Assembly (NCBI GenBank): GCA_964588305.1
Contig: CAZPOP010000017.1
Span: forward strand, 230-64,229
From: an uncultured Ignavibacteria bacterium
Lineage (GTDB): Bacteria > Zixibacteria > MSB-5A5 > SM1-73
Length of the DNA: 64,000 nucleotides
Direction: 5' to 3'
Position numbers and translations under genes: made by a program. Below, piece by piece: positions 227 to 27,400 of the stretch (position 1 is its first letter; each line of letters begins with the position of its first letter). The notes beneath the pieces were generated by a model. It saw only the letters and a program-made list of their open reading frames with translations, had not been told where the DNA came from and searched no databases.

Positions 227-2548
227 TCAGTTACAGATCAGCGACCCACCGAGAAACAGATAATTGACGAAATGAACGACATCCGCGACATCAAGCACCC
301 CGTCATTGTTGACGTCTCCGGTTTGCATGGGATCAGGGGCAGAGCCGTCCTTGAAGAGGTAATTAATCAAATAGGTCAAGTCTCCCACGTCTATTATTCC
401 GTCTTCGTTGCAGTCGCCGCAGGTGTATATGCCCACAGACAGCGCATCCGACCAATAGCTCTCGTGATCATGTGTATCCTTGGCCTTTACCTTCACCTCA
501 AAGATACCGCCGTAGGTCCAGGCGTAAGAGGCTGTGCAGGGATCGCCAGAACTGTACGGCCCTAGCCAGTCACTATCGGCACCGTTTCCCCAGTCAAAGA
601 AATAGAATATGTTATCTGCTTCAGGATCGGTCGTGCTGGTTGAAAAAGAATACTCTGATCCTACCTCTCCTCTGTCTGGTCCGGACGGCGTAGCCGGTGT
701 CTCCGGAGGATAGCTGGAAACTACGGGTGCCATGCCCAGGTTAGGGTTGCCCCAAAGCGCTCCCCACTCGAACATCTCATACTTCATCAGGGACCAAAGA
801 CCGTAGGTATACATGTCTCTCAAAGCCTGCTGATGGGCACTGCCCTGGGTATAATACCCTGAAGTGGTGCGGGTGGTAAAGAAGTAGTCCATTGACTGGC
901 TGGAGCCATCATAGGGATCGTTCCAGCCGGGACACCCCAGCGCAACCTTGGTAGCCCCTACAAAACCCACGGCACCCTGTTGCAGCATGGCCTGGCCGAT
1001 GTTAAGATAATCGGTGTCGGAATTGCTGCAAGCATCAGCAAACACGATTGCCGGATAGTCGTCGTTGAGGCTGGGGCAGGTAGAGTTGGTAACGAAAGCC
1101 GATCCCTTGGAGTACATGATGTGGCACGAGGTGGGCGAACCGTGACCGGCCCAGTCCACAAAGGCGTAAGTGCCGGAGGACCATACCGAAACCACGTTGC
1201 TGTAGTTCAGGTCGTAGTCCGAGGGATACAGGGAATGTCCCTGCTCGTACATGCGGGTCATGGTCCAATCTAACATCCACATCTGGTTGACCTTGGCTTC
1301 CATAAGAACTGCATTGTCCGTGTCCGACCAGAAGTAGGCGCCCAAAAGAAGAATGTTTTTCTTGAAGGCCGGGTCATCGTTCTGTTCATAAGCAACGGAT
1401 TTCTCACAGATATGCAAAACGTCAGCCGGGCTGCTCCAGGGAATTCTTCCGACATTCACCTCAGAGTAGAAATCGATGTTATCAGAGTCCTCACCCCAGC
1501 GATGGTTCTGGTCGTCATCCCAGGACTCGGAGTCAGGAAGGGAGAGCTCAGCATAGTATAAGTCAGTCTCTGGGTTTCCATATCCGATATCCTGCCAGCA
1601 ACGGCGCATGGGCACGTCATTGTAATTCCCAACCAAAAGCACATCTTCTATGCCCCATTCACCGGAGGGGTACTTCTCCCTGAGGAAATTTCTCATCTTC
1701 TCTGCCAGATCATAGCCGGTATATTTGGAGTTGATCCAGGAGGTGGTCACCACCTCGACCCTTCTTCCTTTCGAGAGTTCCCAGTCCACCAAGGGCGCTA
1801 TCGAAGAGGTCAGCTCATCTAAAGTGATGATAACAAAGTCATGAAGGCCTTTGCCCATATCGATATCTCTTGGGTACCAGTTCTGAGCTTGATCATAATT
1901 CAGGATCAACTCCCCTGCGACCTGTTCTGTCCGGGGAAGGTTATCGATCATGATATCTTCCGGAGAGAAATCTTTAGGCACGGTATAGCTTACCAGGACA
2001 GTGACGTCAGGATGATAGGTGAGCTGACCGGACAGAGGACGATAGCTGAAAGGCATGACTCTCACATCCACCAGGTTGTATTTTCTGTAACTAGCCGTAC
2101 GGATGAAATCCACAGTATTCTGCGGATAGGCCTCATCGCTTCCATAGACAGAATTGTAGTTTTCCTCATACATCTTTTTGTCTCGTTCATAGATGAGGGG
2201 ATCTTCCTGACCTATAACTCTGGGCAATCCGACGGGAGTAATCTGGTAGGTTCCGGGAAGCGTTACACGCTCACCGGCAGTGAAGGTAACCCCAAGAACC
2301 TCAGCTCCGGGCGGAATGGCTATGGCAAAGATCTTTGAGGGCAGGTTTGGCTTTCCCGGGACCAACAGACGACCGAAGTTCTCAACAAGGATTTCCTGTT
2401 CCTGATCGGTGTATTGAATTTCATACGCACCGACAGGTATGGTCACGTTGATTTCACCATCAGCACTCTGGGCAGCGCTGCCTGCCATCAGCATGATCAT
2501 AGAACAAACCACTGCTATTACATATTTTTTCCCGTTCGCCTTTTGCAT
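227..2548 (-). CDS. Secreted clan-CD gingipain-like (peptidase C25 family) cysteine peptidase with C-terminal type-I dockerin
   Basis: ORF 227..2605. Start moved to the ATG at 2548, which follows a GGAGG RBS and gives a signal-peptide-like N-terminus (MQKANGKKYVIAVVCSMIMLMAGSAAQS). His-Gly ('VDWAGHGSPTS') and Ala-Cys ('VFADACSNSD') dyad in the order typical of clan CD/C25. C-terminus has two calcium-binding dockerin repeats ('CNEDGIIDVGDLTYLINYLF' and 'DVNNDGVLDVADVVHFVNYLF'). Confidence 0.7.
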   Translation of the reverse strand: MQKANGKKYVIAVVCSMIMLMAGSAAQSADGEINVTIPVGAYEIQYTDQEQEILVENFGRLLVPGKPNLPSKIFAIAIPPGAEVLGVTFTAGERVTLPGTYQITPVGLPRVIGQEDPLIYERDKKMYEENYNSVYGSDEAYPQNTVDFIRTASYRKYNLVDVRVMPFSYRPLSGQLTYHPDVTVLVSYTVPKDFSPEDIMIDNLPRTEQVAGELILNYDQAQNWYPRDIDMGKGLHDFVIITLDELTSSIAPLVDWELSKGRRVEVVTTSWINSKYTGYDLAEKMRNFLREKYPSGEWGIEDVLLVGNYNDVPMRRCWQDIGYGNPETDLYYAELSLPDSESWDDDQNHRWGEDSDNIDFYSEVNVGRIPWSSPADVLHICEKSVAYEQNDDPAFKKNILLLGAYFWSDTDNAVLMEAKVNQMWMLDWTMTRMYEQGHSLYPSDYDLNYSNVVSVWSSGTYAFVDWAGHGSPTSCHIMYSKGSAFVTNSTCPSLNDDYPAIVFADACSNSDTDYLNIGQAMLQQGAVGFVGATKVALGCPGWNDPYDGSSQSMDYFFTTRTTSGYYTQGSAHQQALRDMYTYGLWSLMKYEMFEWGALWGNPNLGMAPVVSSYPPETPATPSGPDRGEVGSEYSFSTSTTDPEADNIFYFFDWGNGADSDWLGPYSSGDPCTASYAWTYGGIFEVKVKAKDTHDHESYWSDALSVGIYTCGDCNEDGIIDVGDLTYLINYLFKDGSAPDPMQTGDVNNDGVLDVADVVHFVNYLFLGGSLICN

Positions 2549-2630
2549 TTTTTCCTCCTTTAAGCTTGAGGGGAAGGTCACACTTGGTTTCTCTGAATCC
2601 ATCACATCAGTATTATAACCTAAAAACGAA

Positions 2631-2692
2631 ATAAGTCAAGGGAAATCCCTATATGGACGCATCAGGTGGACCGGAAGCGCTTCTCAACACAA
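2631..2692. repeat. About 55-bp repeat, copy 2, in the upstream region of the C25 peptidase gene
   Basis: ATAAGTCAAGGGAAATCCCTATATGGACGCATCAGGTGGACCGGAAGCGCTTCTC versus window positions 1..53. Confidence 0.6.
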
Positions 2693-2891
2693 CAATCAAG
2701 GTCTAAACAACTTAGCAGTGGCCAAGGGCAAAAAGGTGTTTGTTCGCTTTGGAGAGGGCGTTTATCTTTTACCTGACAACTCCTGAAAGGAGGTAACCGC
2801 AAGGCTTGCCGCCGCGCTTTTCTGTTTCTTTCCTCTGCAAATCTCCCCAGATGTGAGAGAGGTCTCTGAAAAACTATTCAGAGAGGGGAAT

Positions 2892-3083
2892 CTGGAGTGT
2901 TCACCTTCCTTCGACCCTTCGACAAGCTCAGGGTGCTGAGCGAAGCCGAAGCACAAGCTCCCTTCGGGTCTGAGCCTCAAGGTCGAAGACAGGACGGTGA
3001 GCAAAGTCGAACCGTTAGGTGAACCTATAAGAGTTGATTGTTTTTCAAGAGGTTTTAGGTCAAGCTGAAGCTTGACACTCCAG
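2892..3083 (+). repeat. Structured palindromic repeat family, copy A (5' arm GGAGTGTTCACCTTC ... GGTGAACC ... 3' arm GGTCAAGCTGAAGCTTGACACTCCAG)
   Basis: Outer stem GGAGTGT/ACACTCC, inner perfect palindrome GTCAAGCT-GA-AGCTTGAC. The same arms recur at 13535, 21706 and 30119. Flanked by further IRs TCTCTGA/TCAGAGA at 2862..2886 and 3107..3122. Confidence 0.7.
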
Positions 3084-3302
3084 GAAAACCTTTGTTGATT
3101 CGACTTTTTCAGAGATCTCTGAGATTCTCCTTGACGCCACCTCCTTCTGACCTTTCTTAGAAGAAAGATTCTTAGAGATGGTACGTTGTGTCGAAGGACA
3201 ATATTGAGGAGAGGAAGGGACGACCAAAAGCGGGATTGTCTCGATAATCTCGTTTTATCCTCCGGACCTCTAACCCAAATTACCGTTGATAGGAGGTGTG
3301 GC

Positions 3303-3515
3303 ATGAAGTACGGAGCCAGAAATCAGTTAGTCGGGAAGGTGAAGGAGATCAAGAGGGGCACGGTGATGAGTCAGATCAGACTAGACATTCCCGCTGATTC
3401 ATCGGTGAGCTCGGTCATGACAATAGACTCGCTGGACGAGTTGGGCATTAAGGAGGGCGATAAAGTGAGGGTGGTCATAAAGGCAGTGAACGTGTTATTG
3501 GTTAAGGAGGAGTAA
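3303..3515 (+). CDS. Mop/TOBE-domain molybdate-binding protein (about 70 aa)
   Basis: Internal start 'MKYGARNQLVGKVKEIKRGTVMSQIRLDIPADSSVSSVMTIDSLDELGIKEGDKVRVVIKAVNVLL' matches the Mop/TOBE fold pattern (SARNxL.G.V......G....V.L..G..L...IT..S...L.L..G..V...IKA..V). Strong AGGAGGTG RBS directly upstream of the ATG at 3303. Confidence 0.6.
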   Translation: MKYGARNQLVGKVKEIKRGTVMSQIRLDIPADSSVSSVMTIDSLDELGIKEGDKVRVVIKAVNVLLVKEE

Positions 3516-3647
3516 GGAAGCGGATAATTGCGGAGGTGCATATCTGAGGAAGCGGGGCGGGAGCCCAGATTCGCGCGCAGGTACACTGAGCCAGGGTCCA
3601 AGAGACGACCAGCGGTCGCTTTGACAAGATCATGAGGAATTCGGCAG

Positions 3648-5768
3648 CTATTCCGCTGTGAATCCACCTACCCAATCCGGCTGAGGGGGCCTTTGGCTTT
3701 CCTTGCCCATCTTTTGCCATTTCTCGTCTGTCAGGCGATCGTCCAAGGGGTGCTTGAATTCGTAATATGAAAACACGCCTCCGCGACACAGCCTTTTGCC
3801 TTTGGCGTCCTCAACTATGACGAAGATATCAAACGGGGAGCCGACACCTTCCTCAAGAACCTGTTTCGTATTGAGATCGGTATGAACGTCAGCTATAAGG
3901 TCCATCCGTTCATCGGCGCCGGACGTTATTTTTTGCATGATTTCCGGGGAGAAGCGTTTCAGTGAAGCCAGCTTTTCACCAATATTCCAAATAAGCTCAT
4001 ACTCCTCGTCACTCAGGATTTTGCAGTCAAGCTCCTTTTCGGATATCGCTTTTAGCTTGGCTAAGATATTCTCAAAGGATTTTAGCTTCTCATGTACACC
4101 TTCAGGTGCAATGCCCAGCGTGTCGAGATTATCCCTTAAGTCTCTCATCATCTCTTCTAATCGTCCATAGACTTCAGGATAGGGTTCGACATAGCCAAAG
4201 GTAAGTTCAGGTCTTGAGGGCATTCCAGTGGCCACCATGGGATAGCTTTGTTTTGCATACAGGATGACGTCGTGCCTTAATTCTGCCCAGGAGCCGAGCG
4301 TGGTTTGCAGCTCCTTGTCGGTCCAGGCCGTGCTCTGCATGAACTCAGGTGCGCTATCTTCTTTGTCCTCTTCCAGAAGCGGTAATAAACAATATAACCA
4401 TCTGAAGTAGAGATTCTGTTTCCAATCCTGGGCAGTCAAAGAGGAAAACTCTTGTTTCAGCTTGTTCAGTTGTTCATAGTAGTATTCATATTCCGTATCC
4501 CCATCCTTCTCCAAGATTTCCAACGCTCTCTTTGATCCAAGCACGGCGAGTATATCCAAACCACGCGGGAATGCTCTGCCCGGTCCCCGATTTACGATGA
4601 TTTCCATGGTAAAGGGCTTTTGATTACCCGTATACCTCAAAATTTCCACCGTGTCCTTCCTTCCGAAAACCAATTCCTGAAACATATATGAATCGGGAAT
4701 AAACCTTTGGCCCATGAATCTGAAACCTTTTGTCGTGACTGCAAATTCCCCATCCTCAACAAAAGCCGCACCCGAGAGAATTCTTGGAGGTCTCAGTTCT
4801 GCCGCCCGATCAATGAATTCCGACAACCTGCTTCTATCACCATATGCATCGACCGCACCGCCGGCGGGGAATATCTCGTTGAGAAGTTCCATGTAATCAT
4901 CAGCATGCAGATCGTCGGTTTTTCCGACAAAATATAACGTCGGTTCATATATCTCCTTCCAAAGCCGGTAAGCTTCCTGATCTTTTCTAAGAGCATCGGT
5001 CATCAGGAGGGCTTGAAGGGTCATCATCCGGCCGTGGGATGCGGCCTCTTCAGTTTTGCCGGGTTTGAGTTTGAAATCGATTCTTCCATACCACATCATG
5101 GCCTTGAAATAACTTTTGAACTTCTCGTTTCTGGTGTAATGACCCCTGGGAAGGTACTGGCTGTAATCTTCAAGCGCGTAGATAGCCGGGGTCTTCACGT
5201 ATGTCAGAAGCTCTCTGGGTCTTAGACCCTCATGCTCCTCAATGTTCCTGATTTCCTTAGCTACAATATCTTCCAACTCATATCCAACATGGTAATCAGG
5301 ATCAAACGACCTTTTGGCAACGGTAAAAAACCCAATGTTTAGTCTTGCTGCTTCCTTAACGTCCGCATTTGTTGCCTGGTTATACTGCTGGATCGATAGA
5401 TCGATCATTCTGTCGGTAAGCTCCGAGGCTTTATCATAAAGCTTCTCTATCTCCAGGATTCGCAAAAGGTAATCGAAGAATATATGGGACGTGTGCAGAA
5501 CGGCGTCTGTCGTGACAAAGATTGGCTGTCTGCGTTTCTTACACTCTCTATATACATCGAATATCTCTTTTTCACGCCCCGGAGTGACGACGAAGCCATT
5601 CTGTTTTAGGTACTCTTTGGCCTCATCCGGGAGATGAAAGTATTGAAAAGAATCTTCCAAGCCCTGAAACGAAAAGCCCTGTGCTTTGGCCTCGTTTGCA
5701 CCTCCGCTTGAAACTATCTGAAACAAGCAGATTAGAAGGACGTTAGAGCATAGAATCAGCCTTTTCAT
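3648..5768 (-). CDS. Large secreted protein of unknown function (possibly DUF3160-like), with N-terminal signal peptide
   Basis: ORF 3648..6128. Start placed at the internal ATG at 5768 (MKRLILCSNVLLICLFQIVSSGGANEAKAQG, signal-peptide-like), which is preceded by a GGAAGGAAG RBS. 707 aa with no recognisable catalytic motif. Confidence 0.5.
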   Translation of the reverse strand: MKRLILCSNVLLICLFQIVSSGGANEAKAQGFSFQGLEDSFQYFHLPDEAKEYLKQNGFVVTPGREKEIFDVYRECKKRRQPIFVTTDAVLHTSHIFFDYLLRILEIEKLYDKASELTDRMIDLSIQQYNQATNADVKEAARLNIGFFTVAKRSFDPDYHVGYELEDIVAKEIRNIEEHEGLRPRELLTYVKTPAIYALEDYSQYLPRGHYTRNEKFKSYFKAMMWYGRIDFKLKPGKTEEAASHGRMMTLQALLMTDALRKDQEAYRLWKEIYEPTLYFVGKTDDLHADDYMELLNEIFPAGGAVDAYGDRSRLSEFIDRAAELRPPRILSGAAFVEDGEFAVTTKGFRFMGQRFIPDSYMFQELVFGRKDTVEILRYTGNQKPFTMEIIVNRGPGRAFPRGLDILAVLGSKRALEILEKDGDTEYEYYYEQLNKLKQEFSSLTAQDWKQNLYFRWLYCLLPLLEEDKEDSAPEFMQSTAWTDKELQTTLGSWAELRHDVILYAKQSYPMVATGMPSRPELTFGYVEPYPEVYGRLEEMMRDLRDNLDTLGIAPEGVHEKLKSFENILAKLKAISEKELDCKILSDEEYELIWNIGEKLASLKRFSPEIMQKITSGADERMDLIADVHTDLNTKQVLEEGVGSPFDIFVIVEDAKGKRLCRGGVFSYYEFKHPLDDRLTDEKWQKMGKESQRPPQPDWVGGFTAE

Positions 5769-6063
5769 AAAGTCTTCCTTCCATTTTGAGGTTGACCCTT
5801 CCTTTTTATATCCTATACAATTTTGATACGGATATATTCCCTGCCACGACCAAGTTTTAATGAGACAACAGATGGTCGGGGTCCGGGCCGACTTCGTGCC
5901 GCACTTCGTCCTGCCCTTCGCCCGGTGCCCCGGTCTGCCCTCCATAGGCGGGTAAACTTGGCAGACCGGGTATATCCGTGACCTAGCTTCAATGAGGGGG
6001 TGGTTGGTAGCCGTCCATATGGATGCGGCAGAAACCGAAAAAAATGCGAAAACTCCACCGTTG

Positions 6064-6117
6064 CCATTTATGGTGAGCGAAGTGAACCATTCATGGTGAC
6101 CGAAGAGAACCATAAAA
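6064..6117. repeat. Tandem 23-bp direct repeats (CCATTTATGGTGAGCGAAGTGAA / CCATTCATGGTGACCGAAGAGAA / CCATAAAATAAC) in a divergent intergenic region
   Basis: Seen directly in sequence, immediately 5' of a TTGACA-N15/16-TATAAA promoter-like element. Confidence 0.6.
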
Positions 6118-6121
6118 TAAC

Positions 6122-6149
6122 TTGACATTGGAGAGGATCACCTATAAAT
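6122..6149 (+). promoter_or_regulatory. Sigma70-like promoter (TTGACA-N15/16-TATAAAT) upstream of the restriction-modification operon
   Basis: cttgacattggagaggatcacctataaattt. Confidence 0.45.
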
Positions 6150-6265
6150 TTACTTATTGATTTACAGAGTCAAGATACCAAGAGAAGTCAGGAGCACGGG
6201 CCTCCTAACCTAAACGGCTATCGAAAAGACCTTAATCGTTAATGAAAAGAAGGTAGAATCCCCTT

Positions 6266-7135
6266 ATGGCAGAACTCTGGAACAAAGAGGTTGAGAAGAC
6301 ATTCTTTACCGAATCCTTTAAATTCGCCACCCCAGAGCAGTTGTTCTATGTTACCGATAAAAATCGATATCTCGCCTATTGGCCCAAAGGTTACGAAAGC
6401 AAGAAAAGCACGCTTCAGAGCAGAAATTCACTAATCGGGAGCTTTACTGAGAAATGGACAACGGATCTAATCCAAGAGGCGGTCAAGGAGAAGGGATTGT
6501 TTGCTGTGCAAGGTGCAATCTGTGACGAGATTGCCTTGACAAATATGTCCCCTGCAGATGTTGTCATTTCAAAGAAAAAGAATGTCAATCAGCAGCCAGA
6601 GGATATCTTGGCCATAATTGAAGTAAAGATGTCCATCGTATGGAACTGGGAATTGCTCAATGGCAAGTTATTGTCTTGCATCGGAGATTATAAGACACAT
6701 CAAGGCAATCCCGGCCTTCTACGTTCCGATTCAATGTTGAAGGCCATCGGCAAGAGCATTAACATAAGAGTTTCGAGCTTCAAGGCTGCTACGATCCCTA
6801 TTATTGTGATGGGCAACACACCTATCACAAACAGCTATTATCCGAAGGTTGACCATCTAAAGGTTGCCGGTATTATACAAGGCTTCTGGTCTGCGAACCC
6901 GAAGCCGTTGGATGACAATGGCGAGAATATAAAGAAGACCGAAAAACAGGCATTCTACAGGTTTGATCATTTTGAAGAACTAAGGAATGCCTTTAGTGTT
7001 TTGCTGTCAGAAGAGATGAACTTCTTTTCCACCATGAAAAGCAAAAAAGAGTTGGGTAAGATCATTGAGACTGCAAATCGTCAAGAAACATACGAAAAGA
7101 AAGCCTCGGTATTCCTCAAACTTATCAAGGAATAA
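6266..7135 (+). CDS. Putative type II restriction endonuclease (PD-(D/E)xK-like)
   Basis: Sits immediately upstream of a DNA methyltransferase gene on the same strand, 6 bp apart. Contains a 'SPAD...(about 20 aa)...IIEVK' motif compatible with PD-x(n)-(D/E)xK. AT-rich relative to its neighbours. Confidence 0.5.
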   Translation: MAELWNKEVEKTFFTESFKFATPEQLFYVTDKNRYLAYWPKGYESKKSTLQSRNSLIGSFTEKWTTDLIQEAVKEKGLFAVQGAICDEIALTNMSPADVVISKKKNVNQQPEDILAIIEVKMSIVWNWELLNGKLLSCIGDYKTHQGNPGLLRSDSMLKAIGKSINIRVSSFKAATIPIIVMGNTPITNSYYPKVDHLKVAGIIQGFWSANPKPLDDNGENIKKTEKQAFYRFDHFEELRNAFSVLLSEEMNFFSTMKSKKELGKIIETANRQETYEKKASVFLKLIKE

Positions 7136-7141
7136 CAAGAG

Positions 7142-8107
7142 ATGAAAGTAAATAAATTCAGACGAGATGGAACAAAAACAAGTTCTTTTGGGACACCGGG
7201 GCGTGTCAATCATGATTCCTCGGAGTTTTACGACAGTAAAATGTATGCTGGTAAGCATCCTCCTGAAAGAGTTAAGTTTATTGAGAACCATATCCCGGCT
7301 AAGAATCTCGACAAAATCTATTGCAAATCAAGTGAAGTAATGGAGGACGTACCTGATCACAGTATCCACCTGATGGTTACTTCGCCACCATACAATGTCA
7401 AGAAGGAGTACGATAAAGACCTTTCCCTTGATGAATACAAAGCATTGCTAAAGAGGGTGTTCGCAGAGACTTACAAAAAGCTTGTAACAGGCGGAAGAGC
7501 TTGCGTTAATGTGGCTAATCTCGGCAGAAAGCCCTACATACCGCTTCATGGCTGCATCATTGAGATCATGCTTGAACTCGGCTATCTGATGCGCGGTGAA
7601 ATCATTTGGAACAAGGCATCAAGCGCTAGCCCTTCCACAGCATGGGGGAGCTGGCAGTCAGCCGCAAACCCTGTATTACGGGACATTCACGAATATATTC
7701 TGATTTTCTCAAAGGAATCATTTTCAAGAAAACGTAGCCACAAAAAAGATACCATTAGCAAAGAAGAATTCCTCGAGTGGACAAAAAGCGTTTGGACTTT
7801 CCCAGCGGTGTCAGCCCGCAGCGTCGGTCATCCTGCCCCTTTTCCAGAAGAATTGCCCCACCGTTTAATCCAGCTGTATACTTTCAAGCAAGATGTTGTC
7901 TTAGACCCGTTTTGCGGCAGTGGGACCGCTTGTGTTGCTGCACTGAAGGACGGGAGGCATTACATTGGATATGATATTGAGTCTGAGTATGTGAGATTAG
8001 CAACTCAAAGAATCGCGGCTTACTCAAGTCAGAAATCCTTATTTGAATACGAAAGACCTTCCCCAACTATGAATCCAAACGAAGAGCGGCCACAGCAAAG
8101 CATGTAG
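7142..8107 (+). CDS. Beta-class amino DNA methyltransferase (N4-cytosine or N6-adenine; SPPY motif IV precedes FxGxG motif I)
   Basis: Motif IV 'LMVTSPPYNV' lies upstream of motif I 'VLDPFCGSGTACVAA'. This order is typical of beta-class MTases such as M.PvuII and M.BamHI. Confidence 0.8.
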   Translation: MKVNKFRRDGTKTSSFGTPGRVNHDSSEFYDSKMYAGKHPPERVKFIENHIPAKNLDKIYCKSSEVMEDVPDHSIHLMVTSPPYNVKKEYDKDLSLDEYKALLKRVFAETYKKLVTGGRACVNVANLGRKPYIPLHGCIIEIMLELGYLMRGEIIWNKASSASPSTAWGSWQSAANPVLRDIHEYILIFSKESFSRKRSHKKDTISKEEFLEWTKSVWTFPAVSARSVGHPAPFPEELPHRLIQLYTFKQDVVLDPFCGSGTACVAALKDGRHYIGYDIESEYVRLATQRIAAYSSQKSLFEYERPSPTMNPNEERPQQSM

Positions 8108-8114
8108 AATTTAC

Positions 8115-8324
8115 GTGTTGCCTCAGGAGCTTACTTTTCCCGGACAGGGAATCATGGCGACTGGCGCCATTAAAGAACACGGATTTTGTTTCATTATGCG
8201 CTTCGAGATCTTCTCCAAAATTCTCAGCCAAACAACCATCAAAACTTCCCTCGATGAATATGGGACCGAGGATTTAGAGGAGATGCAGCAAAACTGCCAA
8301 GAAACAATGCATGAGCTATTTTAG
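8115..8324 (+). CDS. Hypothetical small protein
   Basis: ORF only, downstream of the R-M pair. No recognisable motif. Confidence 0.25.
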   Translation: MLPQELTFPGQGIMATGAIKEHGFCFIMRFEIFSKILSQTTIKTSLDEYGTEDLEEMQQNCQETMHELF

Positions 8325-8329
8325 CATTT

Positions 8330-8536
8330 ATGAGTAAGTACGACCAGCTTAGGGCCTTAATAAGAAGAAGGGCCAGAACATCCCACATATGTGCGTGTTG
8401 TGGTCGACCAATTGAATCAAACGAATTTTACTATTCGGAAGAGCTAAATCAAAGAATCAACGTGTTCTTTAAGAAGAGAAGTTTTTGTGAGCCGTGCTAC
8501 GAACAGTCCGGTGACAAGTTGTTGGCCCTGAAGTAA
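8330..8536 (+). CDS. Small hypothetical protein with CxxC...CxxC zinc-ribbon-like cysteines
   Basis: 'ICACCGRPIES...FCEPCYEQ'. ORF followed by a hairpin at 8598..8623. Confidence 0.35.
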   Translation: MSKYDQLRALIRRRARTSHICACCGRPIESNEFYYSEELNQRINVFFKKRSFCEPCYEQSGDKLLALK

Positions 8537-8597
8537 TATTAGTTAATGCGTCAGGTCTGCTGCGCACCTGACCCTGTTAACTGGTTGAGTTTTATAG

Positions 8598-8623
8598 TTC
8601 AAGCATAGCGCAGCCTGCTTGAC
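8598..8623. terminator. Hairpin TTCAAGCAtagcgcagccTGCTTGAC (copy 1 of a 26-bp palindromic element), 3' of the small ORF at 8330..8536
   Basis: Near-identical reverse-complement copy at 36386..36411 between two convergent genes. No clean U-tract. Confidence 0.35.
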
Positions 8624-8766
8624 AAATCCTCTTATTTCCCACCTCCACGCTAGGAAAGCAAAATCACCCCAACTTTGATGGTGATGCCGATACCCCGCAC
8701 GTATATGAGAGACCAAATACGGGTTTTGTAGACAAATCCTCTATTCTGGCGGAAAGGATATTTCAT

Positions 8767-9309
8767 ATGAACGGTCTGATCGATGCTACCCCTGAATCTA
8801 CCCGAAGAGAAGAGCCTGACGATTTGCAGCTCGTAGAAACACTGATCGACAGGATCATTAAGAGATTGGAAGAGAACACCTTTCAGCCAAAAGTCCAGGA
8901 TGTCTTAAGAGCTATTCAACTCAAGCAGAAGTTGAGCGAAGCGAAATCCGGAGGACCGGATAAAACTTCTGAGGCCGAAAAAAAGTTTTGGCAGGAAATA
9001 GACGAGATAAGAAAGTCCGAATCGGAAAGGTTAGAGAATCTGGAAAGCCAAACAGAAAATCTCCAGGCTCAAGTCCTAAAGAACATGCTCCGGCTCAAAT
9101 ATGAAGTGAAAAACGGTTTGCTTCCGGTGAAGACCATCACCGACGCTCTTAATCAAGAAAAATCCAGGGAACACCGGTTTACTTATCAGCGGATTGGCAG
9201 GCTCCTTACCACCATGGGATTTCAGAAGGCAAGAGCCGGAAACAATTCCGCCATCCTATGGAACGAAGACCAGATCGATCGAATGTTCGAGATTTTTTCT
9301 TCGGGATAA
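8767..9309 (+). CDS. Hypothetical protein (acidic, coiled-coil-like N-terminus; basic C-terminus)
   Basis: 180-aa ORF with AGGA-like RBS. No recognisable family. Confidence 0.4.
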   Translation: MNGLIDATPESTRREEPDDLQLVETLIDRIIKRLEENTFQPKVQDVLRAIQLKQKLSEAKSGGPDKTSEAEKKFWQEIDEIRKSESERLENLESQTENLQAQVLKNMLRLKYEVKNGLLPVKTITDALNQEKSREHRFTYQRIGRLLTTMGFQKARAGNNSAILWNEDQIDRMFEIFSSG

Positions 9310-9621
9310 CACACGAAAGGCACGAAAGCCACGAAACACACGCGGTCGTCGTGGCTATTCCTTTGTGCTGTTTCAACTTAAGAAAGAGAATAGATGACTG
9401 AAGGAATTTTTCAAAAAACACGAGAAACGCAAGAAACACAAGAAACACAACCTCTCAACCCCGCGTTGGTCGGGGGTCACCTTCCCGGTGAATCCCTTCA
9501 GCATGAACCCTGCCCTATGAGTGATAAGTTCTTGTAGCCCATAGGGGCGGGAATTCATCCCGTCCCCAAGCGGAACTTTTTTAACACCCCCTTACGCTCC
9601 GCTCCTACGTTGTGCTGCTTC

Positions 9622-11184
9622 CTAACACGACGGCGGTGATCCTCCGATAAACAGGTAGTTGATAAGATGGACGGCGTCGGCAACGTCGACCACCTCGTCG
9701 CAGTTGGCATCAGCATTCTCCAAAGGATCGGGCGCAGAACCACCTATGAAAAGATAATTGATTAGCTGGATGATATCCGCTATGTCCACGGTCCCGTCCC
9801 CGTTGACATCCCCATGCGAAAATTGAGAATACTTTATGGTGGTATAGTCCAGGTTGTTGGGATAGGTGCTGCTTTGGAAACTTGAACCTGCCACATAAAC
9901 ATTGCCGGAAGCGTCCAAGGCTATAGCATAGGCGTAATCCTCGTAGTTTCCCTCTCCGTTGTATGTCCTTGCCCACATCTGGTTCCCCTCTGAATCATAG
10001 CTCACGGTGGCATAATCAGAAGGTGTTCCCGCAGTGCCGCTGAGGCCGGTGACGTAGACATTGCCAGAGCCGTCTACGGCCAGATCATAAGCCCAATCTA
10101 TACTACCTCCCGGTCCGTCAAATCGTCTTACCCAGGCAGTATCTCCGTTGGGATAATACTTTATCGTTGTATAGTCCTCGTAGGTCTCAGTACCCGCGTA
10201 AGCCTCGCCGGTGACATATACATTACCGGAATCATCCACGGCCAGGGCATATGCATAGTCCACGTCGTTAGCAGGTCCATCGTACCTTCTTACCCAGGCA
10301 GTGTCTCCGTTAGGATAGTATTTTATGGTGGCATAGTCTGGCTGTGCCCCAATGCCGTAGCTTTCTCCGGTTACGCATACGTTGCCCGAATTATCCACGG
10401 CTATGGCGACAGCAAGATCCCTGGAGTCATTCGGTCCATTATATCTTCGGGCCCACAACTCATTCCCCGATGCGTCGTACTTCAGCGTGGCATAGTCGCT
10501 GCCGGACTGATCGCTCCAGCTGTCTCCGGTCACATATACATTTCCGGACTCATCCACAGCTATGGCCTTGGCGCAATCGCCGTATTGGGTCCCCGGGCCG
10601 TCGTACTTTCTGACCCAGGCAGTGTCTCCCTCAGGATAGTACTTTATCGTGGTATAGTGGGCGTCGGCCTCTCCGGTAACATATACATTTCCGGAACCAT
10701 CCACGGCGATGTCCCAGGCGTGATCGCTACCGGTTTCTGCTCCATTGTATCTCCTCACCCAGGCGGTATCTCCGTTGGGATAATACTTTATGGTGGCATA
10801 GTCGTTGCCAGTCGCGATGCCACCGCTATATCCAGTTACATACACGTTGCCAGCATCGTCTACGGCGATAGCACGAATCCCGTCGTTGTCGCCTCCGGGC
10901 CCGTTGTACCTTCTCGCCCATGCGGTGTCTCCATTTGGATAATATTTCACGGTAGCGTAGTCGTCGCCTGTACCGCTGCCGTCACTCCTGCCGCCCACGT
11001 AGACATTGCCCGACGCGTCTACTGCTATGGCAAGAGCCTGATCATTGCCGGTTCCCTGGGCGTTGTAACCACTTACCCAGGCAGTCTCCACGAAAACACC
11101 AGCAGAAGAAGGCAAGGCCCACAAGACATAGTTTGACAGGCCGACCATACCCAGGAACAGAATCATTAGAACCTTCTTATGCAT
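9622..11184 (-). CDS. Secreted SBBP beta-propeller-repeat protein with C-terminal type-I dockerin
   Basis: About 10 tandem repeats of the 'YATIKYYPNGDTAWVRRYNGP...AIAVDxSGNVYVTG' unit (SBBP/PF06739-like). Signal peptide 'MHKKVLMILFLGMVGLSNYVLWALPSSAG' begins at the ATG at 11184, which is preceded by a GGAGGTG RBS. Dockerin repeats 'GDVNGDGTVDIADIIQLINYLF' and 'DANCDEVVDVADAVHLINYLF' at the C-terminus. Confidence 0.8.
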   Translation of the reverse strand: MHKKVLMILFLGMVGLSNYVLWALPSSAGVFVETAWVSGYNAQGTGNDQALAIAVDASGNVYVGGRSDGSGTGDDYATVKYYPNGDTAWARRYNGPGGDNDGIRAIAVDDAGNVYVTGYSGGIATGNDYATIKYYPNGDTAWVRRYNGAETGSDHAWDIAVDGSGNVYVTGEADAHYTTIKYYPEGDTAWVRKYDGPGTQYGDCAKAIAVDESGNVYVTGDSWSDQSGSDYATLKYDASGNELWARRYNGPNDSRDLAVAIAVDNSGNVCVTGESYGIGAQPDYATIKYYPNGDTAWVRRYDGPANDVDYAYALAVDDSGNVYVTGEAYAGTETYEDYTTIKYYPNGDTAWVRRFDGPGGSIDWAYDLAVDGSGNVYVTGLSGTAGTPSDYATVSYDSEGNQMWARTYNGEGNYEDYAYAIALDASGNVYVAGSSFQSSTYPNNLDYTTIKYSQFSHGDVNGDGTVDIADIIQLINYLFIGGSAPDPLENADANCDEVVDVADAVHLINYLFIGGSPPSC

Positions 11185-22243: not shown

Positions 22244-24058
22244 CTACTTCAACAGGACCATTCGTTTGGTCTGGGTAACCTCGCCCGCACTCAACTGACA
22301 GAAGTAAATGCCGCTGGCCAAGTCTCTACCCTTTTGATCCTTTCCATCCCAATTCAAGGTCTTGGTTCCTGCTTCCTGGCGGCCGTCGACCAATGTTCTC
22401 ATCTTCTGGCCCAGTATGTTGTAGATGGTCAAAGTCACCCGGCAAGGCTTGAGGAGATTATATTTGATGAGGGTCTGGTTGTTAAACGGATTGGGATAGC
22501 TCTGGTAAAGCTCGAAATCCTTTGGAGTTATGGCACTCCCTTGGTCCTCCTCTTCGACCGCAGTAGACTTGGGGCAGATCATGACCGCATATTCCACTTC
22601 GGTGGCATAGAAGATCACGTCGTCTTTGGGTGCCGGTTTGGTGACGGCTATGAATTTCTCCGGAACGTTTAGGCCAGAGTATTTACGGACGCCGTAGGGG
22701 TAATTAATCTCCCAGAAAGGATTGCCCTGGCTGGGTGGGTCAGGGGTCAGGTTGCTTTGGTACATGTCGTGCGAGACGTTGGATGGATCGTTGTGCAGAG
22801 TGGCGTCATATTCCCCGGAAGGTGGATGTAGTGGCGGCCTGATCCTGCCTGGGGCACCGTGTACGGCTCCGTCCCAGTCCGGATCGCTGATGGCGATCTT
22901 CAAGGAGTCGGAACACACTCCGGCCATGGTGACAAAATGCCCGCCCTCTCTATGCCACTCCAATCCGTCGGCCGACCACCAGAAGCCCAGAAGCAGGATG
23001 ATATCCTGGGACCTTTTCAGCGAGTCCTCCATTTCGTGGAAGTTGGGCATCTCGAAGGTGGATTCCTTAAGGGCGAATTCAAAGTCCTGGAAGTATTGGT
23101 CCAGTGCCATCTCCATGGTGTCGACGTAGGTTCCCTGCCCTGGATTGCAGTGCATGCGCGCTGCCAGGCTATCTATCAGCTGAGGGGGAGTCCATCCCTG
23201 GGGTACGGCATCATACCACCACAGGCAGTTGGCCACGGCGGTGGGGCCGCAATAAGCCACCCACTGATCCTGATTCTGGTCAAAATCGGGCATGCCGCTG
23301 GGAGAATTCCCCGTGTCGTCTTTCCAATACCAACAGCTCTCCGGATCACACTGCTGGGTATAGCCGGTTATCCGCATGATCGGGTATCCGGGGACTGGAG
23401 GCGACCAGAAGTCTGACCACTCGAAATACCAGTACTGCTCCTCCCAGAAGTACCAAGCCCAGGCATCACAGGTGTCCGCCGGGTTTGTGCTCTCGTTGGT
23501 CATGGTTAGACTGGGATATGGCGGATTTGATTCGCCGGTGTATAGAATCTCCAGAAAGAACGGGTCACGTACACAACAAAGCGAGTCCAGGTCCAGATGA
23601 ATCGTGTCTGGATAAGCGGAATCGCTGTGAATGGTGTACACCTGAGAACACAAGATATCTCCGGGACCATTGCACTTGTCTCCCTCATACAAGTCCCGTA
23701 TATTGACTTCAATCTCCACCGGCCAAGTATAGTCCTCGGGGTCGTAGAGATAAAAATGTACATCCGTTATCTTGAAGGGATAAGGATCCGGCAGCCCGCA
23801 CTGTGCCGGGTCCAGATATAACGCAAATCCGTCACCCCCTTGAAAATCGCCGAAGTAAGAGGCTACCGCGTCATTATCGCTTTGAATCAGGCAGAAACCC
23901 TTGCCACCACCTGGGGGGGCAGGTGAGGATGGAATAATCTGATCCGCGGGGACCTTTTGGGGAGTTAGTTTGTCAAAACCTTCCGCAGCCGCATTTGAAG
24001 TGAAAATGCCAAAAACGAACACGCCCGCCAAGATCAGCATCGTTAGTTTTCTTATCAT
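22244..24058 (-). CDS. T9SS-sorted secreted protein with papain-fold Cys/His domain (paralog 1)
   Basis: Signal peptide. Conserved 'YCGPTAVANCLWWYDAVPQG' (candidate Cys) and 'REGGHFVTMAGV...ISDPD' (candidate His/Asp). C-terminal T9SS CTD 'YQSYPNPFN...GIYFCQLSAGEVTQTKRMVLLK'. Confidence 0.65.
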   Translation of the reverse strand: MIRKLTMLILAGVFVFGIFTSNAAAEGFDKLTPQKVPADQIIPSSPAPPGGGKGFCLIQSDNDAVASYFGDFQGGDGFALYLDPAQCGLPDPYPFKITDVHFYLYDPEDYTWPVEIEVNIRDLYEGDKCNGPGDILCSQVYTIHSDSAYPDTIHLDLDSLCCVRDPFFLEILYTGESNPPYPSLTMTNESTNPADTCDAWAWYFWEEQYWYFEWSDFWSPPVPGYPIMRITGYTQQCDPESCWYWKDDTGNSPSGMPDFDQNQDQWVAYCGPTAVANCLWWYDAVPQGWTPPQLIDSLAARMHCNPGQGTYVDTMEMALDQYFQDFEFALKESTFEMPNFHEMEDSLKRSQDIILLLGFWWSADGLEWHREGGHFVTMAGVCSDSLKIAISDPDWDGAVHGAPGRIRPPLHPPSGEYDATLHNDPSNVSHDMYQSNLTPDPPSQGNPFWEINYPYGVRKYSGLNVPEKFIAVTKPAPKDDVIFYATEVEYAVMICPKSTAVEEEDQGSAITPKDFELYQSYPNPFNNQTLIKYNLLKPCRVTLTIYNILGQKMRTLVDGRQEAGTKTLNWDGKDQKGRDLASGIYFCQLSAGEVTQTKRMVLLK

Positions 24059-24457: not shown

Positions 24458-27400
24458 CTACTTTAGAAGCACCAGACGTTTTGTCTCTTTGACCTCACCG
24501 ACCTTCAACTGGTAGAAGTAGATGCCAGTGGATAGGTCATTGCCTTTTTCGTCCGTTCCGTCCCATCTGATGCTCTGGAGACCTGCCTGGCTGCGTCCCT
24601 TCACGAAGGTTTTCACCTTCTGCCCCAGAACGTTGTAAATCGCCAAGCTGACCTCAGCCGGCCTTCGCAGATCGAACTTGATCAGGGTCTCGGCGTTGAA
24701 TGGATTGGGGAAGTTTTGATAAAGCTCAAAGTCCTTTGGAGTCAGAGCCGCTTCCTCCTCTCCCTCCACTGCGGTGGGCTTGGGACAGATCATTACCGCA
24801 TACTCCACCTCGGTGACAAAGACGTCCATCGCGTCTTTGGGCGCCGCTTTGGTCGCAGCCCTGAATTTGTCCGGAACGTTCATGCCGGAGAATCCACCTC
24901 GGGCCCAGATATAGTCGATTTCCCAGAAAGGATTGCCCGGGCTGGGGAACGGGTTGTCAAGCAGGCTTTGGTACATGTCGTGGGAGACGTAAGTTGAATC
25001 GTTATGCAGTTCAGGCGGATAGAGTCCGGCTCCCGGATGCCACGGAGGTCTGACTCTGCCAGGTCCACCTTCCACTGCCGCATCCCGGTCCGGGTCGCTT
25101 AGGGCAATCTTCAGAGACTCGGAGCATACACCGGCCATGGTGACAAAATGTCCGCGCTCCCTGTGCCACGTTCCCCCGCCCGGACAAGCGGGAAAGCCGG
25201 CGCAGCCAAGAGCATCCGACGTTGGATCCACGCCGCAATCCGGAAATGGGGGAGGCAAGTCGGGACCAGCCATGTAGATATAGTCATAGAGAGCTATGCT
25301 GTCGCCGGAATCCAATACCCCGTCATCGTTAGCATCGGCAGCATCATCGCACGGAAAAGGTGGTCCGGTCAGCCAATAAGTTAAGTCGGCCGTGTCAGTG
25401 ACTCCGTCCTGGTTTAAATCTCCCCGGATGAACTGCTGCGGTTCTCCCTCATACCACCAGAAACCCAAGAGCAGGATGATGTCCTGACACTTCTTGAGCG
25501 AATCCTCCATTTCGAGGAAGTCGGGCATCTCGAAAGTGGATTCCTGGAGGGCAAATGCATAATCCAGGAAATACTGCTCCAGTCCCGCCTGCATGCTGTC
25601 GACGTGCGTTCCCGAGTCGGGGTCGGTTTGAAAGTATCTGGCCAGCGTATCGATCAACTGAGGCGGAGTCCAACCGGGCGGAACTGCATCATACCACCAC
25701 AGGCAGTTGGCTACTGCCGCGGGCCCGCAGTAGGCTATCCATTCGTCCTGATCCTGATCAAAATCGGGCATGCCGCTGGGGGCGTGGGCGGTATCTGGTT
25801 TCCAGTACCAGAGCGAATCGGGCTTCACCAAATGCACCCAGGTGGTGCAATAGTCAGCGGCACCATCCTCGTCGGTCAACCCGTGGATGACCATGTGGGT
25901 ATCGCAAGGGGTGCAGCCGTCAGTGTACCAGGTGATCTCCCAGGTGCCGGATGAAGTTCCCTGTCCTGAGATTCTGGTTATGAAATAGTCGCTGCCGCAG
26001 CCGGGCTGAATGTCAATGGAGGCTTCGTTTTGAATAGAATCCCCGTCCGGATCCGTGCCGGTGATGGTATACTCCACCGCATCGTCCACATTGCCCTCAA
26101 GGAAATCGGGCTGTTCGATCTGGGGCGGGTAATTCGCGTCCGGGTTGGGGCAGATCATGACGGCTGCTTCCACTTCTGTACGCCAATACTCCAAATGCTC
26201 GGGCGCTGCCCTGGTGACGGGCCGGAACCTCTCCGGAACGTTTTTGTTAAAGTATATCAGTGGCTCGTAGCAGTAATCTGCCAGTTCCCATAAGTCGCTG
26301 GCCGGGCTGGGAAATTCCGGGTTAAGCAAGCAGATATAGGCGTCATGGGAGACGTATTGGGTGTCGTTGTGATAGGTGGGGTCGTAACCTCCCCAGGGAA
26401 GGTGCTCTTCCGTTCTGACTCTGCCCGGCCACCAGGAGTACAGTAAACATTGATCCCGATCCGGATCGGATATGGCTACCTCCTTTTTCTCGGAGTTGAC
26501 CCCGGCCATGGTTACAAAATGCCCGCCTTCACGGTACCACTTCGCAGAGTCGTCATCCCACCACCAGAAACCCAGAAGGAGGATGACATCCTGGCAGACC
26601 TTGAGCGAGTCTTCCATCTCGTAAAAGTCCGGCGCCCAATAGGTGGTCTCCTTTAGGGGGAGCAGGTAGTCCTCGAAGTAACTGTCCAGGCCCGCTTGAA
26701 TGGAATCCACGTCGGTGCCAGCAGGGCCGGTGCCGAAGTACCCTGCCAGCAGCTCGATGAACTGGGGAGGCTGCGTTCCTTGCGGGACGGCATCGAACCA
26801 CCAGAGGCAATTTGCCACTGCTGTGGGTCCGCAAAAGGCTGTCCACTCTTCCTGGTTCTGGTCGAAATCGGGCATGCCGCTGGGGGCAGTGGCGGTGTCC
26901 GGCTTCCAATACCATTCTCCGCACTCGGTCTGTTCCTCGCCGCAATATCCACTTATGCCCAGCACGACCCATCCCGGAACGGAAGGTGTCCAAGCCTCAT
27001 ACCACTCCGACCAGGCTGGCTGACCAGACCAGAGCCATTGATAGCAGGTATCGACGGTGACCGTGTCAAAAAACACGCTGGGAATTGAGCCACTCACTCC
27101 GCTCATATACTCCAGATTGAAGAAAAATGGCTTGTCGAGACAGACGGTGTCCGGGAACGAAATTTCTACAGAATCAGGATAGAACGTGGTGATATGGTAA
27201 AGCTGTGATCTCCATATCTCGGTCCCTGGTCCATCGCAAATGTCAGGGCAGACTATCTCCGCACTGAAGCGTACATCCACCTGCCCGCTTCCCGAATAAT
27301 CGTTAAGGTACAACGACACACCAGTCAACTGGAAAGGGTAGTTAGAGGGATTCCCGCAGTCTTCCGGGTCGAAGTATATGGCTACCTTGTCGCCGGATTT

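Follow-up and report, generated by a model that had tools for sequence, protein, structure and literature searches.

A C25 peptidase and an SBBP propeller with C-terminal dockerins as probable cargo of a Zixibacterial cohesin-dockerin system

The DNA analysed here, a 64-kb stretch referred to as the window, comes from an uncultured Zixibacterium from sediment. It encodes a gingipain-like C25 peptidase and an SBBP beta-propeller protein that both end in a dockerin, which raises the question of whether they are delivered to a cohesin-based assembly or carry this module for another reason. The first answer is favoured with some reserve: both genes probably encode Sec-exported cargo of a Zixibacterial cohesin-dockerin system. 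Such a system would be a protein-degrading counterpart of the cellulosome, since the dockerins are genuine here and cohesins, one of them surface-anchored, are encoded in other Zixibacteria. The kind of system is already known, as it was put forward for two other phyla, the Planctomycetes and the Cloacimonadota, with dockerin-bearing C25 and S8 peptidases and a scaffoldin anchored by a type IX secretion system (T9SS) C-terminal domain (CTD) proposed for the latter in 2021.

The C25-dockerin gene (227–2548, minus strand, as are all features of both proteins) was delineated from its open reading frame and Pfam architecture, and encodes 773 residues plus stop. Read directly from the translation, the first ~28 residues (2465–2548, MQKANGKKYVIAVVCSMIMLMAGSAAQS) look like a Sec signal peptide, with a basic n-region, a hydrophobic core and an AQS-A site. 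The propeptide domain that follows (residues 51–193, 1970–2398) reaches 21.6 bits with Propeptide_C25, marginally short of the threshold (22); most homologs carry it as an annotated domain. The catalytic domain (residues 238–583, 800–1837) matches Peptidase_C25 with an E-value of 2.5e-37. Similarity to RgpB is low (E ~5e-5). When the protein is aligned by phmmer with gingipain R (1CVR, 4IEF), AGHGS falls on the GHGS motif and ADACS on the VAC motif, so that His469 (1142–1144) and Cys507 (1028–1030) form the predicted dyad. A PKD-like domain (residues 613–700, 449–712), which matches PDB entry 4XED with an E-value of 4.5e-20 and is annotated as PKD or PKD_4 in homologs, precedes the C-terminal dockerin (residues 707–773, 230–430). 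The latter scores 36.9 bits with Pfam Dockerin_1 (cut-off 22.9) and 120.5 bits with the family HMM, in a match that runs to the last residue. A loop motif search located two Ca-binding loops, DCNEDGIIDVGD and DVNNDGVLDVAD; the PDB dockerin matches are weak (4DH2_B, 4FL4_A, 2Y3N_B). More than 100 homologs share this architecture at 60–87% identity, those with a named source being from Zixibacteria, and an identical protein is encoded on JGI contig Ga0315541_1021781.

The SBBP-dockerin gene (9622–11184), likewise defined by open reading frame and Pfam, encodes 520 residues plus stop, beginning with a signal peptide. The SBBP repeats (residues ~44–452, 9829–11055) were detected by Pfam with an E-value of 3.7e-42 over seven matched stretches. 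The initial annotation had described a 10-blade propeller; counted by the motif A[VL]D..GNVYV, present in eight copies, there are eight repeats of ~53 residues with a period of 49–54. The propeller is a non-catalytic and presumably binding module. The C-terminal dockerin (residues 454–520, 9625–9825) scores 47.8 bits with Dockerin_1 and 121.1 bits with the family HMM. Its AlphaFold2 model has a pLDDT of 89.6, and the top 33 PDB matches found with Foldseek are all dockerins, mostly with TM scores of 0.6–0.84. Sequence and predicted fold thus agree with the initial description of the C-terminal repeats of the two proteins as type-I-like dockerins. A full-length homolog with 52% identity lies at the syntenic position in the closest relative (locus L101).

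A third dockerin protein had been proposed in the same neighbourhood. The Ca-binding loop expression matched exactly six times in the six frames of the 64 kb, always in frame, in three open reading frames: the two described above and 24458–27622. The first two are real dockerin proteins. The third, against the earlier count, holds an internal degenerate insert (residues 711–787, 25262–25492, minus strand) within its second C39-like domain, which remains below the Dockerin_1 threshold (20.0 bits, cut-off 22.9) and scores 29.7 bits with a Zixibacteria-specific dockerin HMM; its C-terminus is a FlgD_ig/Por_Secre_tail (T9SS) domain. The T9SS CTD is present on three neighbours (22244–24058, 24458–27622 and 27946–29850) and, as had been stated, absent from both dockerin proteins.

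Very many peptidases and propellers carry a dockerin in Zixibacteria. An exhaustive profile search for the dockerin family yielded 50,812 cluster representatives, and 475 dockerin stretches were confirmed in GTDB genomes. The best 78 loci (~1 Mb), labelled Zixibacteria, uncultured Ignavibacteria or uncultured bacterium, contain ~177 dockerin ORFs, often in tandem arrays, and in ~95% of these the dockerin ends at most eight residues from the C-terminus. The cargo dockerins consist of a duplicated Ca-binding F-hand module, usually with a conserved Cys pair. Among 67 cluster representatives, the cargo comprised FG-GAP (15), C25 (8, the two largest clusters being of this type), beta-helix (5), S8 (2), SBBP (2) and M14 (1) proteins and a single GH116. 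The cargo is mainly made of peptidases and binding or propeller modules with few glycoside hydrolases, in line with the initial annotation.

No cohesin was found in the 64-kb window with Pfam or with a family-specific HMM applied to six frames, nor in 22 kb around the dockerin array of the closest relative. Cohesins are nevertheless genuine in Zixibacteria, and one of them is on a T9SS-tagged protein. Pfam Cohesin matches at or above the cut-off occur together with the same dockerin type in P0280 (58.0 bits), P0286 (34.1), P0360 (33.0), P0348 (32.4), P0376 (31.6) and P0326 (25.5). When a profile of 31 such domains was run against the PDB, every match was a cohesin (best 1ANU, E 1e-8), and the 50 best PDB matches of an AlphaFold2 model of the Zixibacterial domain (pLDDT 84.2) are cohesins. 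The adaptor P0391, with the architecture Coh-Ig-Doc-Doc-Coh, is encoded on a 670-kb contig; three proteins of this contig, NrdR among them, fall into clusters with NCBI Zixibacteria proteins at an identity of at least 90%. This architecture is kept in 23 metagenome loci at 42–100% identity; the loop-2 Cys of the adaptor dockerins differs in position from that of the cargo dockerins. The divergently transcribed neighbour of P0391 is an Ig-rich protein of 2,320 residues in which 12 Big_9 domains are joined by a T9SS CTD and a cohesin that passes the cut-off at 28.8 bits, and is the sort of anchored cohesin protein that the initial annotation had envisaged; it is seen in one lineage, the sole one for which the flank of the adaptor was recovered. 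Zixibacteria SM1_73 encodes an S8-Doc-Coh-CTD protein, the cohesin of which scores 21.1 bits with Pfam, below the cut-off, and 111 bits with the family HMM.

A cohesin scaffold had been predicted elsewhere in the window's own genome. As cohesins are encoded by other Zixibacteria, this is supported at the level of the phylum, and by analogy the genome may carry cohesins of this kind; the cohesin-bearing Zixibacteria may belong to lineages other than that of the window's organism. In ~1.4 Mb of loci centred on dockerins there are roughly 30 dockerin ORFs for each cohesin-like one, and the data therefore do not show a single scaffoldin of the classical multi-cohesin type.

The proposed sequence of events would begin with Sec export of two kinds of cargo: a gingipain-type cysteine endopeptidase with a propeptide, a His/Cys dyad, a PKD-like spacer and a dockerin, and an eight-repeat propeller with the same kind of dockerin. 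Both would reach the cell surface by a presumed route across the outer membrane. Their dockerins would then plug into Zixibacterial cohesin modules, borne by Coh-Ig-Doc-Doc-Coh adaptors and by surface proteins held through the T9SS CTD. Proteases and binding modules would thus be concentrated on the cell surface, where particulate or detrital protein could be degraded.

The dockerins might alternatively be orphans that bind no cohesin, serving as Ca-dependent stabilizing or adhesion modules with EPS, a mineral or a surface glycan as ligand, or binding one another. The excess of dockerins in the sampled loci and the cohesin-free window and array of the closest relative would fit this reading, and proteins with 3–12 tandem dockerins, some of them T9SS-anchored, are poorly accounted for as plug-and-socket cargo. 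Many non-cellulosomal dockerins are reportedly without a known partner. We nevertheless regard it as unlikely, though worth keeping in mind, because genuine Zixibacterial cohesins very often share a polypeptide with this dockerin type, as in about 40 of the top 150 dockerin representatives, and because the helix motif YLINYLF is near-invariant in dockerins on unrelated cargo, as expected with one common protein partner.

As the two proteins have no T9SS domain, they could instead stay in the periplasm or exit by a type II secretion system or vesicles, with the dockerin as a sorting or retention tag. The three TonB-dependent receptors encoded in the window indicate a diderm host, within the same cargo families some members have a T9SS CTD at their very C-terminus and others a dockerin, and the conserved Cys pair would suit an oxidizing compartment. 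This routing is improbable, as the dockerin fold is not related to known sorting domains, and the gingipain-type peptidases of Porphyromonas work outside the cell. A dockerin and a T9SS CTD occur together on some proteins, so the two are not simple alternatives. A last reading, in which the dockerin hits are EF-hand-like motifs arising by chance or the ORFs are not genes, has nothing but the shortness of the module in its favour and is rejected, given scores well above Pfam cut-offs, conservation of both proteins in homologs, a confident model with a dockerin fold and six loop motifs all in frame in three ORFs.

The cohesin-dockerin assembly favoured here resembles the cellulosome-like complex proposed for the Cloacimonadota 'Ca. 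Stygibacter' (Williams et al. 2021, PMC8542988), also a diderm of the FCB superphylum. There too, enzymes with signal peptides and C-terminal dockerins include an S8 and a gingipain-like C25 peptidase, cohesin proteins are attached by a conserved C-terminal T9SS-type domain, and the proposed target is protein or other biopolymers, not cellulose. It differs in phylum and in its single CTD-bearing scaffoldin of 3,755 residues with tandem cohesins and CBM2/CBM3. No multi-cohesin scaffoldin was found among the Zixibacterial cohesin proteins, which are single-cohesin anchors (12 Big_9-Coh-CTD; S8-Doc-Coh-CTD) and two-cohesin adaptors, and C25 peptidases and FG-GAP propellers predominate in the Zixibacterial cargo. 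The planctosome of freshwater Planctomycetes (Andrei et al. 2019, PMC6461901) is likewise non-cellulosomal and proposed for polypeptide degradation, with a dockerin- and cohesin-bearing adaptor and peptidase cargo, but belongs to another phylum, with a lamin-tail-domain anchor and M12B and M14 metallopeptidases.

Clostridial cellulosomes (type I, such as C. thermocellum CipA) have in common the dockerin fold with duplicated Ca-binding segments, the cohesin fold and profile, and adaptors with both module types. The Zixibacterial host is in contrast diderm, with a T9SS anchor in place of SLH or sortase, almost no glycoside hydrolases in the cargo, a conserved Cys pair in the cargo dockerins and no multi-cohesin primary scaffoldin seen. 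The C25 protein shares with Porphyromonas gingivalis RgpB and Kgp (MEROPS C25) the N-terminal propeptide, the catalytic domain with its aligned dyad and a following Ig/PKD-like domain, but ends in a dockerin, whereas gingipains end in a T9SS CTD and are anchored by way of A-LPS. In sediments, exported C25 peptidases occur in abundance and are transcribed, Zixibacteria being among the assigned lineages (PMC6365825).

In the closest relative, the genes form an unbroken run of SBBP-dockerin, TOBE, two C25-dockerin and a further dockerin gene. In the window, a small Mop/TOBE gene (3303–3515, plus strand, 70 residues by translation), matched at the same place in the relative by a TOBE gene of likewise 70 residues with 80% nucleotide identity, lies between the dockerin genes, which are parted by a block missing from the relative (3648–9309) that holds a DUF3160 gene, a type II restriction-modification pair and small ORFs. 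With these genes intervening, the dockerin genes do not form one operon. A consensus scan found a promoter-like site upstream of the C25 gene (2612–2639, minus strand, TTGACT-16-TATAAT, 11 of 12 matches), which suggests a separate transcription unit.

Both proteins are encoded on the minus strand of the window. Pfam assigns a Propeptide_C25, a Peptidase_C25 and a C-terminal Dockerin_1 domain to the 773-residue product of the ORF at 227-2548, and SBBP repeats followed by a C-terminal Dockerin_1 domain to the 520-residue product of the ORF at 9622-11184. The Dockerin_1 domains, encoded at 230-430 and 9625-9825, score 36.9 and 47.8 bits, respectively, against the gathering cut-off of 22.9 bits for type I dockerins (PF00404). 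The sorting domain of the type IX secretion system (T9SS), recognized as Por_Secre_tail or FlgD_ig, is absent from both proteins and present in three neighbours (22244-24058, 24458-27622 and 27946-29850). The initial annotation, in which both proteins end in dockerin repeats rather than in a T9SS domain, is thus borne out. A plausible Sec signal peptide can be read by eye at the start of each protein.

A dockerin segment was defined as the duplicated 12-residue calcium-binding loop DxNxDGxxDxxD followed by a helix, and the dockerin fold as two long antiparallel helices with a short connecting helix. Two calcium-binding loops per module were found in both window dockerins by regular expression and in the translations, and the segment duplication is visible in the consensus of 181 family modules. 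Over the six frames of the whole 64 kb, the loop expression returned six matches, all in frame in the ORFs 227-2548, 9622-11184 and 24458-27622. The dockerin of the SBBP protein was modelled with AlphaFold2 from 76 family sequences with a pLDDT of 89.6, and consists of helices 22-34, 42-45 and 55-67. Its 33 best PDB matches found with Foldseek are all dockerins, with TM-scores mostly of 0.6-0.84 and r.m.s.ds of 1.5-3.5 Å. Given the Pfam scores and the modelled fold, the modules are therefore dockerins by sequence and fold. Among the 181 family modules, the cysteine at position 4 of loop 2 is conserved in 70% of the cargo modules and a cysteine at the C-terminal end in 80%, which suggests that the two may form a disulfide. 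Clostridial dockerins, in contrast to the Zixibacterial family consensus, do not have this cysteine pair.

A third dockerin protein had been proposed at 24458-27622. This proposal needs correcting, as the dockerin-like stretch is a degenerate internal insert that scores 20.0 bits with Dockerin_1, below the cut-off of 22.9 bits, and 29.7 bits with the family-specific HMM. The protein is T9SS-tagged and contains two C39-like domains, the second of which is split by the insert. The combination of a Peptidase_C39_2 domain, three dockerins and a cohesin close to the threshold in the database protein P0267 hints that C39-like proteins with cohesins and dockerins form a related lineage.

The Peptidase_C25 match of the 227-2548 protein (129.5 bits, E = 2.5e-37) covers positions 1-349 of the 374 of the profile. 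Its Propeptide_C25 match, at 21.6 bits, is just below the cut-off of 22, and the propeptide domain is annotated in most of the close homologs. In a local alignment with gingipain R (PDB 1CVR and 4IEF), which is weak with a domain E-value of about 1, His469 (AGHGS) falls on the GHGS motif and Cys507 (ADACS) on the VAC motif, so that these residues occupy the positions of the catalytic His and Cys of RgpB. Residues 613-700, encoded at 449-712, form a PKD-like domain matching PDB 4XED with an E-value of 4.5e-20. More than 100 homologs with 60-87% identity have the same architecture, and those that are named belong to 'Candidatus Zixiibacteriota'. Two homologs with 59-63% identity (P0105 and P0097) have a second PKD domain in place of the dockerin. 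These are labelled Thermoplasmata or Thermoplasmatales archaeon, one being on a contig of 2.32 Mb; bacteria and archaea may have exchanged sediment peptidases.

In the 9622-11184 protein, tandem SBBP repeats (PF06739) are matched in 7 stretches with 142.4 bits and an E-value of 3.7e-42. By motif count there are eight repeats of about 53 residues each, predicted to form a propeller, and not the ten blades initially counted. No CAZyme domain was found by Pfam in either window protein.

The distribution of this dockerin type was examined with a profile of seven dockerins searched against GTDB genomes, which gave 475 confirmed stretches. The best 78 loci span about 1.06 Mb and carry the label Zixibacteria, uncultured Ignavibacteria or uncultured bacterium. 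They contain 177 dockerin ORFs, which often stand in arrays on one strand with as many as eight genes, and in about 95% of the ORFs the module lies at most 8 residues from the C-terminus. When 1.84 billion representatives were searched exhaustively, this dockerin type was retrieved in 50,812 proteins. A homolog search with the dockerin profile yielded mostly short gene fragments and was unfit for cataloguing the cargo. Pfam analysis of 67 cluster representatives showed FG-GAP (15), C25 (8), beta-helix/NosD (5), S8 (2) and SBBP (2) domains, with single cases of M14, GH116, beta-lactamase, CBM96, LamG and MAM; the two largest clusters belong to the C25 group. With one GH116 in 67 representatives, the cargo is dominated by peptidases and propellers and not by glycoside hydrolases, much as had been anticipated. 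Other members of the same cargo families carry a T9SS domain in place of the dockerin.

Some proteins at the top of the exhaustive search (P0241-P0299) consist of 3-12 tandem dockerins. Five of them (P0257, P0272, P0283, P0287 and P0290) combine a signal peptide, 3-4 dockerins and a T9SS C-terminal domain, and would make a surface-anchored plug array, the reverse of a scaffoldin. Other poly-dockerin proteins are labelled Parcubacteria or Patescibacteria, one of them also with an S8 domain. In eight independent assemblies (L084-L091; for example L084:9392-10249), an 82-residue dockerin-only ORF, P0155, directly follows a Big_5/FG-GAP ORF of 195-201 residues, this part being two shorter ORFs in L091; this conserved arrangement is a dockerin gene that has been split or frameshifted.

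Cohesins, the partners of dockerins in known systems such as that of Clostridium thermocellum, were sought in the window and in other Zixibacteria. None was found in the window, neither by Pfam on all sizeable ORFs nor with a family-specific HMM over six frames, and none beside dockerin genes in the precomputed Pfam annotation of four contig sets. An HMM of the C. thermocellum CipA cohesins retrieved nothing from all ORFs of the Zixibacterial loci, because this model is too narrow. The first lead was a protein of Zixibacteria SM1_73 (locus L037) with an S8 domain, a dockerin, a cohesin-like region scoring a sub-threshold 21.1 bits with Cohesin, and a T9SS C-terminal domain. A homolog search with the cohesin-like region gave no matches, and comparisons by phmmer with the PDB and by hhalign with three CipA cohesins (probability 1%) were uninformative. 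The region was recognized as a cohesin only after relatives had emerged from the exhaustive dockerin search. Six of the top dockerin matches there reach the Pfam Cohesin cut-off (P0280, 58.0; P0286, 34.1; P0360, 33.0; P0348, 32.4; P0376, 31.6; P0326, 25.5 bits), and several more score just under it. With an HMM built from the cohesin domains of the top matches, about 40 of the 150 best-scoring dockerin representatives showed a cohesin-like domain. A profile of 31 such domains matched 33 PDB chains, all cohesins, the best being CipA Coh2 with an E-value of 1e-8. Weaker cohesin-like matches, without Pfam confirmation, occur in loci of two complete chromosomes of Zixibacteria, CP070839.1 and OY970208.1.

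P0391 is a 563-residue Coh-Ig-Doc-Doc-Coh protein (Coh, cohesin; Doc, dockerin) encoded on a 670-kb contig (L097). NrdR and two other proteins of this contig cluster at ≥90% identity with Zixibacteria proteins of NCBI. An AlphaFold2 model of one P0391 cohesin domain has a pLDDT of 84.2, and the 50 PDB structures that match it best are cohesins. The divergent neighbour of P0391 (L097:2267-9226, minus strand) encodes 2,320 residues with 12 Big_9 domains, a Cohesin domain with 28.8 bits against a Pfam cut-off of 24.1, and a Por_Secre_tail/FlgD_ig domain. A putative T9SS-anchored cohesin protein is thus encoded in a relative only. The architecture of P0391 recurs in 23 metagenome loci with 42-100% identity. 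In several of these, small genes for Coh-Doc (about 260 residues) and Doc-Coh-Doc (270-295 residues) proteins adjoin the adaptor gene (L102:2478-3254, L109:2930-3739, L113:3165-4049, L122:707-1501). In the adaptor dockerins of P0326 and P0348, the loop-2 cysteine lies two positions later than in cargo dockerins, which suggests at least two dockerin subtypes, adaptor and cargo.

The best-supported interpretation assigns the two window proteins, as cargo, to an assembly system of cohesins and dockerins in Zixibacteria. It is supported at the level of the phylum, from other Zixibacteria, and unproven for the genome of the window. In such an assembly, proteases and binding modules would be presented on the cell surface; T9SS-anchored cohesin proteins would tether them, and the proteins combining cohesins and dockerins would serve as adaptors. 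The window dockerins would bind Zixibacterial cohesins encoded in the same genome, and the dockerin proteins devoid of a T9SS domain would have to cross the outer membrane. The main rival explanation, that the dockerins act without cohesins, keeps some weight because the sampled DNA contains about 30 dockerins for each cohesin, because proteins of 3-12 tandem dockerins exist, some T9SS-tagged, and because cargo and adaptor dockerins differ in subtype. Against it stand the adaptor and anchor cohesins of other Zixibacteria.

Starting from the cohesin-dockerin assembly, a bolder proposal, which we consider rather doubtful, is that Zixibacteria build a large self-assembling proteolytic mesh on their surface, tethered by the T9SS and comprising dozens of dockerin-tagged proteins per genome. 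Its cargo would be dockerin-tagged C25, S8 and M14 peptidases and propeller binders, wired by Coh-Ig-Doc-Doc-Coh, Doc-Coh-Doc and T9SS-tagged poly-dockerin proteins, and tethered by T9SS-anchored proteins with a single cohesin. The layout would be a daisy chain or mesh and not a linear scaffoldin. If it exists, this mesh could be a main path by which detrital protein is broken down in anoxic sediments.

Zixibacteria are widespread in marine sediments and uncultured. The idea of an assembly of dockerin-tagged peptidases is not new. A cellulosome-like complex was proposed by Williams et al. (2021) in the Cloacimonadota genus 'Ca. Stygibacter', with dockerin-tagged GH18, GH57, S8/S53 and gingipain-like C25 enzymes and a multi-cohesin scaffoldin of 3,755 residues with a C-terminal attachment domain (PMC8542988), and a peptide-degrading 'planctosome' was proposed in Planctomycetes by Andrei et al. 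(2019; PMC6461901). No paper tying Zixibacteria to dockerins was found in the literature searched. In a strict cellulosome, glycoside hydrolases dominate the cargo and the scaffoldin has a CBM. The 67 cargo representatives include only one GH116 and one CBM96, and peptidases and propellers prevail among them; with next to no glycoside hydrolases in its cargo, the system does not qualify as a strict cellulosome. Among the extracellular peptidase genes of marine sediments, those of exported C25 peptidases rank with the most abundant and most transcribed, and the lineages to which they were assigned include Zixibacteria (PMC6365825). This ecological setting fits dockerin-tagged C25 cargo. If the interpretation is correct, the cellulosome principle, here tied to the T9SS, would cover the degradation of protein in a third phylum of diderms, and the cargo dockerin, adaptor cohesin and anchor cohesin would offer module pairs that can be cloned.

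Between the two dockerin genes, the window contains a Mop/TOBE gene, a DUF3160 gene and a type II restriction-modification system, which suggests that the two belong to separate transcription units. In the closest relative (L101, GCA_975959795.1), the order is SBBP-Doc (52% identity), TOBE, C25-Doc (84% identity), a second C25-Doc of 956 residues and a 599-residue dockerin protein. The segment 3648-9309, which comprises a secreted DUF3160 protein, the type II restriction-modification pair (a 289-residue ORF and an N6_N4 methylase) and small ORFs, is missing from this otherwise collinear array. Because the dockerin array of GCA_975959795.1 is contiguous, the segment is an insertion relative to that genome, and it looks like one that split the dockerin gene array. 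The array runs beyond the left edge of the window, where the next gene, read from a contig carrying the identical C25 protein, begins as another C25 paralog. The ORF 2762-3304 (minus strand), which lies upstream of the C25 gene, was assessed as a possible partner and rejected. It has no Pfam match and a low-complexity translation rich in R, S and L, and the genuine gene at this position is the small TOBE gene, on the opposite strand.

Fibre-like secreted proteins adjoin dockerin genes in six Zixibacterial loci (among them L034:3080-5416, L039:12960-14744, L009:7913-9457, L025:81-1619 and L055:8014-9483). A C-terminal Peptidase_S74 domain (endosialidase chaperone) was found in two of the five scanned. 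They were rejected as dockerin receptors, as they gave no cohesin signal. Elsewhere in the window, 32632-36219 encodes an ABC-2 permease fused to an M1 peptidase domain (1,195 residues), and downstream of it, at 38442-63645, three TonB-dependent receptors are interspersed with response regulators and several large hybrid histidine kinases.
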